NCBI GenBank assembly: GCA_965216875.1
Contig: OZ244207.1
Coordinates: 1,216,001 to 1,280,000, forward strand
Length of the DNA: 64,000 bases
Direction of reading: 5' to 3'
Origin: Rubripirellula sp.
GTDB taxonomy: Bacteria > Planctomycetota > Planctomycetia > Pirellulales > Pirellulaceae
A model generated the notes under the pieces. It ran no database searches. It was not told the DNA's origin and worked only from the letters and a program-made list of their open reading frames with translations. Position numbers and translations under genes: made by a program. The first letter of the stretch is position 1; the number at the start of each line of letters is the position of its first letter. Positions 9,876 through 30,211 of the stretch are shown one piece after another.

Positions 9876-9896
9876 GTACACCCCAGAGGATTCGAA
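9876..9896. repeat. att core, left copy (duplicated tRNA-Arg 3' end)
   Basis: gtacaccccagaggattcgaa is identical to 30184-30204. Confidence 0.95.
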
Positions 9897-10141
9897 TGCG
9901 CTCGACGATTCGCGATGCGATGATTCGCACGACGCGAATAAGGGAGCGGAAAAGGGGACACCGGCTATTGAAGAGAGTGAATCGATAGTGTTGACCCGCG
10001 CTTGGGAAGTCGACATCGTGCACATTGTCCAGGCACTTTCTGATAGCGCGCTGTGCGATCTCCTGGCCGTCGCGCGAGGGCTTCTTCGAACTGAGGAAAC
10101 GTCCAACGACTAAGTGTCCATCCCACCACGGTTTCGGGTGT

Positions 10142-10156
10142 CTGCCACGGTGGCAC
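10142..10156. promoter_or_regulatory. island palindrome, imperfect copy (ctgccacggtggcac)
   Basis: near match to GTGCCACWGTGGCAC, upstream of ORF 10204. Confidence 0.6.
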
Positions 10157-10203
10157 ACTCTTGATCATGCTTGAAATGCCGCCAGAACCATCGAGATAGA
10201 GCC

Positions 10204-10383
10204 ATGAACAACCCCTACGAGATATCAACCAGCGATCACCGCCGACAACGAAACGCCTATACGGGCCGTCAGATGTTCGTGTCGTTCCTGGGTGGCACCA
10301 TCTTGGGACTGGTCATCGCGGTCCTGGGCTTCATCATCCTGATCTTGTGGTCCGCTCTTCAGACGTATCAGATCGGCGTCTAG
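10204..10383 (+). CDS. small membrane protein (59 aa)
   Basis: NPY N-terminus and one long hydrophobic stretch. Confidence 0.6.
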   Translation: MNNPYEISTSDHRRQRNAYTGRQMFVSFLGGTILGLVIAVLGFIILILWSALQTYQIGV

Positions 10384-11621
10384 TGATCGTGACCGTAGCC
10401 TGAGAGGTTGGTATCCATCCCGAGCGCCTTGCCGAGCCGGTTCATTCGACCGTATTCCTCGTCCATCCTGAAGATGTGGTCGTCGTCCACGTAGGCACGA
10501 AGCCAATTGACGCCTCTTCCCAACGGACCTGGACTGTTCTCCGCCCAGTACCCTGTGAGCTGTCCTCTAGTTGCGCCCTTCTCGCGCAATGCAGTGTAGA
10601 GCTCTTCGCCTTTGAGCCCTTCGTCGAGCAACTTGTTGATCAACGGTCCGAGTTCTTCCTCCACTGGTCGACCAAATTCGTCCCGCTCAATCAAGTCCGG
10701 CTCAAACGATCCCATGCCCAACGCCTTCGCCAACCGGCTCGTGTATGGACGAGCCATCTGAGGATTCGACTCGATCACCCCCGGGAGTAATGCCTCCATC
10801 AAACTCTGACGCCGTCCTTCAGGCGACAAACTCTGTTGCAACGCATCCAGTTTCGCTGAGGCGAGTTCACCTTCCCGCTCGGCGGTCGCTCGCTGGATTG
10901 CAAGCTCCTGCTGCCGGAGCCCAAGTGCACCCTCGTTCGCCGCGGCCTGTTGTTGAGCCCCAAACATCTGAACAGCGAGTTCTGGGCGATACGCCATCAA
11001 TGCCTGCATAAACCGGCTGGGCCGTTGGTTGGTCGATGCAATTCGCTGAGCCTGCTGCTGAGCACGGTGGGTGGGCCTGTTTGCAAGGCGACTCGCCCGA
11101 CGCGCTCGACCACGATCGCGATTTGCTTGAGCAGCTGGGGACAGCGGGCGTCGACCTCCCATGTTTAGAGCTGTTGCCAAACGGCCCGGTGGAGCTTGAA
11201 ACCCTGGCCGCATTGGAGTGGCGTCCACATAGCCTTGCAAAGGTGCTCCAACCACACTCACGCGACCATCGGCGCCAACTGTTCGCTCGTAGGTCTCGGT
11301 CTTCGCAGGTTGGACCGGACCTCGTCTATGGACGTACGCGAGATTGCTATTGGGAGTCCCTGGAGAGGTGTCGCCAGCAATGTTTGGGAGTGACGGCGAG
11401 GGCGTGTAGCTCCCGTTGCGGCCACGCGTGACGCCGTAGCCGGCGTCACGGTTTACGTTTTGCCCTATCCCGAGCAGGGAACCCAGACGCGACTGTGGTC
11501 TCGAGCTGCGACTGCCCATTCCCAGTGCGGCTCCCAGTCGTGACTGTTGTCTGCGCGGTGGTGCAGAGCTGCTCAGCAGTGATTGGCGACCTGTTGTAGT
11601 AGTCGTATCAAAGTATGGCAT
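10380..11621 (-). CDS. low-complexity hypothetical protein with repeated RLxxALGMG-like motif
   Basis: long ORF; the motif occurs about 5 times. Confidence 0.7.
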   Translation of the reverse strand: MPYFDTTTTTGRQSLLSSSAPPRRQQSRLGAALGMGSRSSRPQSRLGSLLGIGQNVNRDAGYGVTRGRNGSYTPSPSLPNIAGDTSPGTPNSNLAYVHRRGPVQPAKTETYERTVGADGRVSVVGAPLQGYVDATPMRPGFQAPPGRLATALNMGGRRPLSPAAQANRDRGRARRASRLANRPTHRAQQQAQRIASTNQRPSRFMQALMAYRPELAVQMFGAQQQAAANEGALGLRQQELAIQRATAEREGELASAKLDALQQSLSPEGRRQSLMEALLPGVIESNPQMARPYTSRLAKALGMGSFEPDLIERDEFGRPVEEELGPLINKLLDEGLKGEELYTALREKGATRGQLTGYWAENSPGPLGRGVNWLRAYVDDDHIFRMDEEYGRMNRLGKALGMDTNLSGYGHDH

Positions 11622-11886
11622 CGTCTTGTCCCTCTTGTTTTTTGGACGCCCATGTTTGGAACATTGAGTAGAGCTCTTCACCTCGATCGCTGGGCTGATC
11701 GGCATCACCAAGCTGCGATTCGAGTTCGGCGATCTCCTCGGGTGTGCTATTGATCATTTTGAAGCAGGTTGATTTCTCGAATGGAACACCCATCATCGAT
11801 TCGTTGCTCCACGACTCCAATGCCCTTGAGAGACGATGGAAGAACATCCGCGTCTGTTCATCACCATTGCGTACCATTTCGACCAC
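11608..11886 (-). CDS. hypothetical protein
   Basis: 92 aa ORF overlapping the start of the next gene. Confidence 0.5.
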   Translation of the reverse strand: MVEMVRNGDEQTRMFFHRLSRALESWSNESMMGVPFEKSTCFKMINSTPEEIAELESQLGDADQPSDRGEELYSMFQTWASKKQEGQDDAIL

Positions 11887-27914: not shown

Positions 27915-28059
27915 CACTAGCTCCTTGGTACACGGTGGCTCGTACTTGCACCGACCGATCAAGCGATGATCTCACAGTGTCGTTGCAGGTAGTTTATCGG
28001 TGAAGCCTCCGTACCGGCCGGGAAATCAGATTGGATGGTGGGGCTTGGCCGAGGCAACC

Positions 28060-28074
28060 GTGCCACAGTGGCAC
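28060..28074. promoter_or_regulatory. island palindrome GTGCCACAGTGGCAC (extends to 19 bp, 28058-28076)
   Basis: perfect copy upstream of the excisionase. Confidence 0.75.
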
Positions 28075-28407
28075 GGATTGAAGTTGCGGGGACCTCCTCT
28101 CAACTACCCGAGCCGTTTTTGGTGTTGCGCTCTCGATGGGGAATGTAAATCAAGAAGCGATCGCGAATTGGGTCCCCACCCCCATGTCGCCACAAGTTTT
28201 TCCTCATGCACTGAGATGCTGCCCGCGTAGCATTCCCGCGACCAGATGGTCAGCGACTTATAGGATCTGCTACGCAACACTTTGCGCTGAGCCCGATCGA
28301 GCTAAGGATTTTGGTTGTCGTCCTCTTGGACAGCTGCAGCCGCAACCTCCAGAGAGTAGCAGCTCTGTGGCAACCTCGGGTGATGCGAGTCATGGAGAGA
28401 GCCCAGG

Positions 28408-28803
28408 ATGAATGTTGACGCACGCACGTTTGGAGAGCAGTTTTGGTCGTTGTTCGAATCGGAGGACATCGACGCCGCAACCTGCCGGTTCGCGGTACAG
28501 CGAGCTCTGATTCACGCCGCGGAAGGATTGGCCGAACTGGATTGTTTCCTACAGGAGGCGTACCGTTGTTTCGAAGCGACTGGAGACAAAACCCGCGCCC
28601 ACGATGTTGGGACGATCGTTGAGGCGATCCTGCTTGGTTGTCGAGCGTATGAGCACGGCAGCACCGAGATCGAAGGGACCAACCTACTGGTCCTGAAGAC
28701 GATGCTGTCGGTTGGCCGCAAGGCCACTGGTGGAAACGCCTGTGTGGATGAACTCAGCGACGCGCTTGACCACCGTCAAGACGAAGCTGTGGCATCAGCA
28801 TAG
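28408..28803 (+). CDS. hypothetical protein
   Basis: 131 aa ORF followed by the hairpin cccgccg..cggcggg. Confidence 0.55.
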   Translation: MNVDARTFGEQFWSLFESEDIDAATCRFAVQRALIHAAEGLAELDCFLQEAYRCFEATGDKTRAHDVGTIVEAILLGCRAYEHGSTEIEGTNLLVLKTMLSVGRKATGGNACVDELSDALDHRQDEAVASA

Positions 28804-28915
28804 GTTGTGCTGCTGAGGTCCCGCCGTTTCACGCGGCGGGGCCATTTGGCCTACGCGTGTGCGAAAGAGGAGGGTCCGGAGGCTCCATCGATAACCTTTG
28901 CAGGAGGAACACCGC

Positions 28916-30211
28916 ATGGCCTATCTTGAACACATCAATAGCTCTGGCAAATTACGATTCCGGCTTGTCTTTCGCTTCGAAGGCAAGCGCAAGAGCGTCT
29001 CGCTGACGGGCTTCGACGAACCTGCCGCGGAAGTGGCGAAGGAGCACGTTGAGCATCTGATCGCCCAGCACGCTCTACAACGGCCCCCCGCAGCCTCGAC
29101 GATGCAGTGGCTGTCTCAGCTGTCGATCAAGCTGCATGACCGACTCGCCGCGATCGGGCTGGTGGAGTCCCGCAAACACAGCGACATGCCTCGCATGGTC
29201 GTCGCCTACATGCGGGCGTACATCAAGGACCGAACCGATTGGAGGAAACCCGAGAACTACCGGCAAGCTGTCGACAAGCTCGAGGAGTACCTTAAACGCG
29301 ATCGGCCCCTCCGCGCGCTTACCAAAGGTGATGCCGATCGATTCCACCGTTGGATGATCGATACGTTAGGTATGTCGAGAAACACTGCCGGCCAGCACGT
29401 CAAACGCTGCCGACAGATGATTCGACACGCCGTTGATGATGACCTGGTTACGTTCAACCCGTTTGTCGGTATCAAGATCGACCTCAAGAGCGATCGATCC
29501 AAGAATCGCTACATCACGGGCGTCGAGGCGAATGCAATCCTCGAGGCGTGTCCAGATCAGGAGTGGAGGGCGATCGTCGCCTTAAGCCGGTTTGCGGGCC
29601 TGCGCTGCCCGTCTGAAGTGCTCAACCTGAAATGGGAGGATATCGTCTGGGACCGCGATCGCTTCAAGGTGAGGGCTCGCAAGACGGAACGCTATGGGAC
29701 CGGTGAGAGGATTGTTCCGCTGTTTCCTGAGGTTCGGCGAGAGCTAGCGGACCTCCAGGAGGTTGCCGGGAAAGGTGCCTACGTGGTCAATACCTATCGA
29801 TCCGGTGAGGCCAACCTGAGGACGACCTTCCTCAAGATCGTCGATCGCGCGGGTGTCGATCGCTTTCCCAAACCCTTCAACAACCTCCGCGCCAGTTGTC
29901 GCCGGGACCTGAAGGTCCACTGCATTCGTGAGGGCATAGACGAGGCTGCAGTCACCCAGTGGCTTGGTCACAGCAAGCAGGTCGGTGAAGAGTACTACGA
30001 CCGTGTAACCGAGGAGGACTACCGCGCCGCAGTTGGAGCCAGTGTGTGTCCCGTCAATTCAGAAAAGGGGGCAAAAAAGGGGACGCACAGAGTGGTGCTG
30101 GACAACACACGCAAACAAGGCTCGCGAAAGTCACGAAAAAAGCCATCACAAACGGCGGTGTGCTCGTCTGCGATGGCTTCAAGGTACACCCCAGAGGATT
30201 CGAACCTCTAA
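28916..30211 (+). CDS. tyrosine recombinase/integrase
   Basis: FAGLRCPSEV (R), NNLRASC, WLGHS, EEYY (Y); aggagg RBS; ORF reads into the tRNA. Confidence 0.92.
   Translation: MAYLEHINSSGKLRFRLVFRFEGKRKSVSLTGFDEPAAEVAKEHVEHLIAQHALQRPPAASTMQWLSQLSIKLHDRLAAIGLVESRKHSDMPRMVVAYMRAYIKDRTDWRKPENYRQAVDKLEEYLKRDRPLRALTKGDADRFHRWMIDTLGMSRNTAGQHVKRCRQMIRHAVDDDLVTFNPFVGIKIDLKSDRSKNRYITGVEANAILEACPDQEWRAIVALSRFAGLRCPSEVLNLKWEDIVWDRDRFKVRARKTERYGTGERIVPLFPEVRRELADLQEVAGKGAYVVNTYRSGEANLRTTFLKIVDRAGVDRFPKPFNNLRASCRRDLKVHCIREGIDEAAVTQWLGHSKQVGEEYYDRVTEEDYRAAVGASVCPVNSEKGAKKGTHRVVLDNTRKQGSRKSRKKPSQTAVCSSAMASRYTPEDSNL
30184..30204. repeat. att core, right copy within tRNA-Arg
   Basis: identical to 9876-9896. 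Confidence 0.95.

Follow-up and report, generated by a model that had tools for sequence, protein, structure and literature searches.

The window analyzed here is a 64,000-nt stretch of a Rubripirellula sp. genome (contig OZ244207.1, forward-strand positions 1,216,001 to 1,280,000; the 8.26-Mb host genome is called G000 below). It holds an integrative island of ∼20 kb, given in window coordinates, whose core includes a small gene with the fold shared by PolA and T7 RNA polymerase. From 125 mechanically called open reading frames (ORFs), 25 were scanned with Pfam, 24 with PHROGs, 30 with NCBIfam, and 15 with PADLOC. An earlier note, made from the letters alone, had proposed att repeats, an integrase (int) and an excisionase (xis), and these were borne out by an exact 21-bp repeat and by Pfam, PHROGs, and NCBIfam. 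It had also seen no capsid, terminase, portal, relaxase, type IV secretion system or helicase; in agreement, no such family appeared among the ORFs scanned with these three databases. They likewise revealed neither terL, portal, capsid or tail genes nor remnants of them in the window ORFs scanned, and Pfam and NCBIfam revealed no relaxase family. Below, L-numbers denote the polymerase, zinc-finger (ZF) or palindrome loci that we examined, G749 is another genome of the family, and X4 and X5 are sequencing runs. The ends of the island, its recombination genes and the genes that recur in related elements are as follows.

9876–9896: att repeat, 21 bp, the displaced 3′ end of tRNA-Arg, an exact copy of 30184–30204
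10380–11621, minus strand: glutamine/alanine-rich (Q/A-rich) protein, 413 aa, subfamily core, aligned with its L003 and L119 homologues
11608–11886, minus strand: small "ESW" protein (alignment A6; L130 match, E 8e-14)
12078–12692, plus strand: CxxC-CxxC ZF and helical protein, subfamily core, with an HNH/EndoVII-like zinc site
14051–14227, plus strand: 58-aa ORF with a homologue ahead of the ParB-polymerase pair in L101 (locus comparison)
14318–15700, plus strand: minimal PolA/T7-RNAP-fold polymerase, 460 aa (structure model, fold match, family alignment)
16317–16874, plus strand: phage-type putative DNA-binding protein (phrog_4571)
27636–27914, minus strand: excisionase-type helix-turn-helix (HTH) protein, xis/AlpA-like (Pfam, PHROGs, NCBIfam)
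28916–30211, plus strand: tyrosine integrase, its last codons running through the att core (Pfam, PHROGs, NCBIfam)
30183–30258, minus strand: tRNA-Arg(ACG), the integration site (tRNA call)
30184–30204: att repeat inside tRNA-Arg, an exact copy of 9876–9896

The integrase frame crosses the att core (30184–30211), so that its C-terminal codons would change on an excised circle. The HTH protein matched HTH_17/excisionase and gave no AlpA match in Pfam or NCBIfam. In X4, a run from the same sample, one contig spanned the left att site unbroken and depth was alike inside and outside the island; contigs drop rare forms, so that this bears neither way on excision. Two genomes of the same genus carried the tRNA-Arg gene without the island genes, but with left flanks that differed from that of the window.

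The polymerase and its family in Pirellulaceae

The PolA/T7-fold assignment made in the earlier note held up, both in the fold match of the structure model and in the catalytic residues conserved across a 114-member family alignment. The predicted structure is that of an intact-looking enzyme and consists of an alpha/beta N-terminal domain (about residues 55–180), a small thumb, palm and fingers, with no exonuclease. The two catalytic aspartates were present in 114/114 (D293) and 113/114 (D424) aligned members, and the hairpin arginine R266 in 114/114. The RxxxK motif of the fingers corresponds to R339-x3-K343 in the island protein; across the family the lysine was kept in 113/114 members and the arginine in only 44/114. 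The family numbers 1,912 representatives at E ≤ 1e-3, and a credible Pfam match was obtained for 0 of the 114 aligned members. PDB sequence searches with alignments A1 and A5 returned nothing credible. Pattern-based locus scans with A1 drew a blank in viral contigs and yielded a single short match in metagenomes. Protein P0001 matched no plasmid and, weakly, one phage; the L119 polymerase matched no plasmid either. When the model was ranked by fold against BFVD, the Zamilon replication protein came at rank 41 (E 8.5e-5), behind phage proteins of 400–430 aa (E to 3e-13). A winged-helix assignment of the N-terminal domain, whose sole basis was the order of elements in the full model, was dropped.

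A profile built from 29 polymerase sequences found the family in 52 of 400 sampled genomes (13% of sampled Pirellulaceae). We examined 48 loci, including that of the window; those fetched were part of the profile matches and some lay on short contigs. Tyrosine integrases, called with a custom hidden Markov model built from eight of those same integrases, were present in 27 loci, a tRNA or tmRNA gene in 28 and both in 23, compared to a tRNA baseline of 11.5% of random 20-kb host windows. Nine further units of 5.9–13.6 kb were bounded by tRNA-derived repeats (L003, L077, L109, L114, L117, L119, L120, L124, and L130), with no integrase found between the repeats of L117 and L120. Three of these, L003, L119, and L130, come from other genera and have the window's backbone: int, an HTH gene, ESW directly before the Q/A-rich gene, a ParB-like gene in the position of the window's 16317, the polymerase, and the ZF gene near one end. 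ESW lay directly upstream of the Q/A-rich gene in 4/4 subfamily elements, and L119 occupies the same tRNA-Arg(ACG) site. Thus, the proposal that the core recurs at planctomycete tRNA sites is supported by the 48-locus survey and the repeat-bounded units: homologues of 12078 accompany the polymerase in L003, L115, L116, L119, and L130, and homologues of 16317 and 14051 lie beside it in L116 and L101, respectively. As these core genes recur in att-bounded elements of other genomes, the idea of an island family stands.

A Q/A-rich profile matched in 6/400 family genomes, and the protein had no PDB match and no viral-contig relative. The 16317 product is at best weakly DUF3102-like (hhalign 22% to the L002 DUF3102 protein), and relatives hold ParB-like or DUF3102 genes in its slot. 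In 16 further ZF loci, comparison with four references gave 0 terL-like matches. The cluster of ZF homologues nearest to L003 (protein P0162) is on a Logan contig of 9,517 bp, close to the length of the L003 element (9.5 kb); this contig could be an excised or packaged form. In L119, a Cys-rich 712-aa ORF that looks tail-fibre-like by eye follows the Q/A gene (L119:12181-14319); it matched no PHROG and nothing in the resident prophage described below. Genes for Topo VI-like ATPase/Toprim or ParB-Toprim proteins lie near or directly upstream of the polymerase at L074:6369-8986, L102:10905-13622, L094:587-2050, and L130:11110-12684.

The gene in the replication slot differs between otherwise similar elements. 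G749 carries a 12.7-kb element with the same att core, the Q/A gene, and the integrase and xis most like those of the window; here a Prim-Pol gene was found (PF09250, E 7e-20) and no polymerase-family match. In L371, a prim-pol gene adjoins the ZF gene. A sister element in X5, an algae-metagenome run of another study, is ∼97% identical to the island over long stretches, with about 22.5–27.5 kb uncovered in the comparison, and has 1,387 other letters across 14357–15831 and more replacements at 15979–16496 and 17230–18795. A quick tree built from 45 polymerases placed the four Q/A-ZF elements in at least three clades. Judged from these sequence comparisons, the replication slot is exchangeable between elements.

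A dispersed palindrome and its distribution

The palindrome GTGCCAC-W-GTGGCAC occurs in seven exact copies in the 8.26-Mb genome, all of them in the island, together with two degenerate copies.

10142–10156: degenerate, two mismatches to the W pattern
11992–12006: degenerate, between the divergent ESW and ZF genes
12840–12854: exact, GTGCCAC-A-GTGGCAC
14227–14241: exact, overlapping the 14051 stop, 77 nt before the polymerase ATG
16916–16930: exact
19469–19483: exact, at a cargo junction
22858–22872: exact, upstream of the HD-CE gene
27602–27616: exact, downstream of xis
28060–28074: exact, upstream of xis

All copies are intergenic or overlap a stop codon; their positions include those ahead of the polymerase, ZF, xis and HD-CE genes and the junctions of the cargo. 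Of the nine genomic copies of the 13-bp core, eight are in the island (expected, 0.002); in a set of 250 family genomes, the others each hold at most two. Since repeated palindromes with 7-bp arms are not unique (35/406 host windows have a family of at least three copies), the claim concerns this specific sequence and its confinement to the island. With up to one mismatch, L130 has four copies and L119 three, and L003 has five copies of the variant TGACAC-N-GTGTCA; in all three, related palindromes are found upstream of the ZF gene. The Prim-Pol element and the remaining six of the att-bounded elements tested hold 0–1 copies. A host regulator with an SOS-type box is an unlikely binder and was rejected, with only one exact 13-bp core outside the island. 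The ZF protein was weakened as a candidate and is insufficient as binder, because 0/16 further ZF loci hold the motif. Separately, ParB-like and DUF3102-like genes contain a short DNA palindrome in the coding sequence just after the presumed HTH, differing from gene to gene, and in L119 this in-gene palindrome recurs upstream of the ZF gene. Our literature search on DUF3102 and palindromes found nothing relevant. The in-gene palindromes lie at these positions:

Window 16547–16564
L003:9327-9339
L002:11281-12312
L077:7998-8882

A scan of IMG/VR for the exact palindrome returned 55 stretches. One 38-kb contig, IMGVR_UViG_3300007643_000034 (stretches L020, L023, L034, L068, L070, L040, and L041), has 17 dispersed copies and is a tailed-phage fragment that encodes terS, terL, portal, capsid and neck proteins, a helicase and a ParB-like protein. 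Many of its copies lie at start or stop codons and one within the portal gene, a stoperator-like layout. Some other multi-copy contigs, from unrelated viruses, have tandem, iteron-like arrays of the 15-mer (L017, L031, L044, L048, and L061, several at about 22-bp spacing). The L003 palindrome was found in five IMG/VR records with 3–9 copies, and those tested had no polymerase family member. The phage portal, used as a single-protein query, was not found in four element-bearing genomes. The host genome also has a resident prophage of 38.4 kb at tRNA-His (G000:C1:2677278-2715655; 49-bp att, terL), with portal, capsid, tape-measure and ParB-like genes by eye and its own dispersed palindrome, GTTTCCGCGGAAAC, in six copies. 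With this different sequence, the resident prophage is unsupported as an operator-sharing helper, and each element may therefore have its dispersed palindromes as operators for itself and not as the signal of a helper. To have dispersed operators is a trait general to the mobile genomes considered here. In the background literature, one short site repeated at gene boundaries is familiar from the OB sites of IncP KorB, the C1 sites of P1, and mycobacteriophage stoperators; the present case differs in that an island and a phage have the same site but no detectable common protein. The exact match may reflect helper-satellite cross-regulation or merely related regulators.

Cargo and flanking features

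The defence-like cargo of the earlier note was found as an HD-CE/HSP90-type ATPase gene and a lower-GC P-loop ATPase operon. These and the remaining features are the following.

10204–10383, plus strand: small membrane-protein ORF, no family (Pfam, PHROGs, NCBIfam)
12960–13358, plus strand: ORF, 132 aa, no family
13624–14061, plus strand: ORF, possibly HTH-type by eye, no family (Pfam, PHROGs, NCBIfam)
15898–16320, plus strand: ORF, weak phrog_5931 (PHROGs)
16965–19327, plus strand: variable small ORFs 16965, 17388, 17891, 18461, and 18839, no families (Pfam, PHROGs, PADLOC, NCBIfam)
19704–20750, minus strand: cargo ORF, 348 aa, no family
21006–22742, minus strand: HD-CE and HSP90-type ATPase conflict-system gene (PF24391, E 7e-48)
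23032–23376: probable repeat or insertion sequence remnant, 77% like genome 644172–644541
23409–27171, plus strand: four-gene cargo operon of lower GC, encoding proteins of 472 aa, 459 aa (P-loop ATPase) and 145 aa and one that is PIN-like by eye
28408–28803, plus strand: ORF before int, no credible family

The HD-CE gene apparently ends early, with the first ∼160 of 604–614 HSP90 model positions covered. The four-gene operon had no PADLOC match and is a probable defence module. The small ORFs of 16965–19327 are partly swapped out in the X5 sister, and the comparison shows that cargo blocks, some with defence genes, are swapped between copies. Sigma-70 promoter and terminator scans of the island stayed at chance level. 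The 3′ end of ORF 18839 (19209–19321; also 7729–7847) matches a host repeat, a REP-like (repetitive extragenic palindromic) family present in >100 copies in the genome is represented immediately to the left of the island (9700–9775), and a tmRNA gene is at 51187–51560.

Mode of life and significance

Several described systems resemble the island in part. TV-Pols are minimal superfamily-A polymerases of 400–600 aa without nuclease domains and are predicted primase-polymerases, with stand-alone forms also allowed, according to the available part of the original description (PMC2579912). The island protein is likewise a minimal PolA-type enzyme without a nuclease, with the hairpin arginine, two aspartates and RxxxK, lambda-type integrase neighbours (an integrase in 27/48 loci of its family) and planctomycete hosts. 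Besides stand-alone forms, TV-Pols are described with a D5 helicase partner or with an all-helical N-terminal domain; no D5 helicase was found in the island, and the N-terminal domain is alpha/beta in our model. The present elements also differ in that they target tRNA genes and have a conserved Q/A-ESW-ZF backbone and palindromic sites. As compared by motifs and description, TV-Pol membership is plausible; in the part of the 2023 PolA reclassification available, the terms TV-Pol, TVPol, and "winged" are absent (PMC10201439). The PolA-SSB primase CcPol-MP of SCCmec (SSB, a protein that binds single-stranded DNA) also puts an A-family polymerase domain where an integrative element has its primase, and de novo synthesis is reported for it. 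However, those Bacillota proteins, as presented in the portions of the reports available (PMC10061031, PMC10201439), retain a portion of the exonuclease domain, depend on an OB-fold partner and mostly, though not universally, occur with a helicase in one operon and with recombinases. No helicase was found among the island ORFs scanned, and the island is not a typical PolA-SSB primase element.

Phage-inducible chromosomal islands (PICIs) and their minimalist form (PICMIs) are similarly small, with int, an HTH regulator, which in PICIs is of AlpA, MerR or Stl type, a replication gene and cargo (PMC10085698, PMC10803314, in the sections available). In contrast, no archaeo-eukaryotic (AEP) or DnaG primase-replicase, terS or capsid gene was found in the island, and a PolA-fold gene fills the slot; PICMIs, which lack terS and capsid-remodelling genes, integrate at fis in another phylum, whereas the island is at tRNA-Arg(ACG). 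By the SatelliteFinder core, as set out in the part available (PMC10085698), the island is not a PICI, and by its site it is not a PICMI. Pipolins, as the accessible text describes them (PMC11551731), are integrative, lie between direct repeats and combine a minimal core that includes a polymerase of their own with exchangeable defence cargo, but this polymerase is a primer-independent PolB rather than a PolA/T7-fold protein of 460 aa. The island is not a pipolin. It would work like a TV-Pol-type replicating element with a minimal-satellite layout.

Taken together, these data suggest a helper-dependent integrative element of Pirellulaceae, resembling a minimal phage satellite, with a polymerase that initiates replication, phage-linked operators and transfer in phage particles; we give this whole reading a probability of about 0.55. 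Int and Xis, whose genes and att sites are in place, would insert and excise the island at the tRNA 3′ end and so form a circle. The PolA-fold protein, a putative primase or replication initiator, would most likely start replication of that circle: its N-terminal domain would bind the origin and the palm would make a primer or short DNA, with host enzymes elongating and unwinding, which would explain the missing helicase. The palindromes would most likely be operators bound by a regulator, either a repressor or an activator, through which the island is switched on together with a phage. Transfer, the least certain step, would most likely take place in tailed-phage particles, by analogy with PICMIs. 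A bolder version, in which one 460-aa protein combines origin recognition with PolA/T7-fold priming, needing neither SSB nor helicase, and the family carries its helper's operator so that one regulator serves both genomes or the island silences the phage, is possible but doubtful.

Several results weigh against the helper-dependent reading. The N-terminal domain of the polymerase was unmatched, with a pLDDT (predicted local distance difference test) of 39 and no usable Atlas match when folded alone, and the replacement seen in X5 could be an allele of the polymerase gene that has diverged. In 16/48 loci, some on short contigs, neither integrase nor tRNA was found within the fetched stretch. 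The ZF protein, set aside for now as a terS candidate, showed no terS likeness (hhalign probability <6% against terS-like proteins, a comparison that could miss remote homologues). The 38-kb phage and the island have no common protein or DNA at E < 1e-3, host links of that phage are limited to a single Pirellulaceae locus with a terL remnant (38%) and to one ORF of G000 (44%), and the palindrome of the resident prophage differs from that of the island, which holds one two-mismatch copy of it. Polymerase family members also adjoin terminases in L002, L110, and G000 598–604 kb, and 90 phage records were matched by a distant member, including those of large phages of Vibrio and Aeromonas. At the last of the terminase loci (L129; G000:C1:597577-604137) lies a second, distant family member (phrog_4756, E 1e-36), beside a resolvase-like gene and terL within a tRNA-array region. 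The phage records matched include ORF100 of the cholera phage ICP1 (E 2e-4), a distant relative that is annotated hypothetical and conserved in this and further large phages of the two genera; a literature search on ICP1 gp80/gp100 found nothing relevant. The polymerase is not specific to satellites.

In the 45-sequence tree, the closest polymerase is that of L002, a prophage that has terL and portal genes and occupies the same tRNA. This also bears on a rival origin of the island, in which a prophage or terminase island decayed, shed its virion genes and picked up cargo. Dispersed palindromes being a phage trait here, the truncated look of the HD-CE gene and the frameshifted Q/A and polymerase genes of L130 would fit that history. 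Nevertheless, we hold it to be very improbable: four att-bounded elements of 9.5–20.3 kb from different genera have the same non-virion core, the ∼97%-identical sister keeps the backbone, the Q/A protein is without relatives in viral contigs, and no virion remnants were found among the window ORFs scanned. The earlier note's proposal is supported in that the island is not an ordinary decayed prophage. A self-replicating island that moves otherwise, by conjugation through a hidden oriT, vesicles or transformation, with the palindromes as its own KorB/ParB-type operators and the phage match due to shared ancestry or convergence, is unlikely, even though no packaging gene was found among the island ORFs scanned and ParB-like genes lie beside the polymerase in many loci. 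Elements and phages each having a palindrome of their own (CTGACAC-S-GTGTCAG in L003, GTGTAG-G-CTACAC in L077, GTTTCCGCGGAAAC in the resident prophage) would suit it, as would the frequency of relaxase-less oriT islands stated in the available part of one report (10.64898/2026.01.13.699239). Against it, the exact 15-mer is common to a tailed phage at 17 sites and is kept in L119 and L130, whose ParB-like genes are of different families, and relatives hold terS-like and tail remnants. It is also rather improbable that the PolA-fold protein is a miniature single-subunit RNA polymerase or other template-directed enzyme, with the palindromes as hairpin promoters or binding sites. A role in priming or initiation draws its main support from the displacement of the slot by a Prim-Pol, and in-place displacement by a primase-polymerase is the argument that Iyer et al. 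made for TV-Pols (PMC2579912, in the part available).

We conclude that the island belongs to a group of small islands that is widespread, seems not to have been described before and probably rides on phages. The earlier note had suggested that the family may be undescribed; this stands insofar as no description of it was found in the mostly open-access literature on planctomycete satellites or on TVpol and satellites, and is to be qualified by the 2008 prediction of TV-Pol elements as mobile, linked to integrases and equipped with a minimal polymerase related to PolA, with planctomycetes among their hosts (PMC2579912, available part). Planctomycetota have almost no described satellites, none was found in our full-text literature search, and the available text of the SatelliteFinder paper makes no mention of planctomycetes (PMC10085698). 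The element family is common and rests on a large unannotated polymerase family. At 460 aa, the PolA/T7-fold enzyme comes close to the smallest core that stands between DNA polymerases and RNA polymerases of the single-subunit type. What the enzyme makes, once known, would put the primase prediction of 2008 for TV-Pols to the test where no helicase is present and could yield a compact primer-independent polymerase, and the common palindrome offers a direct, cheap handle on satellite-helper cross-regulation.

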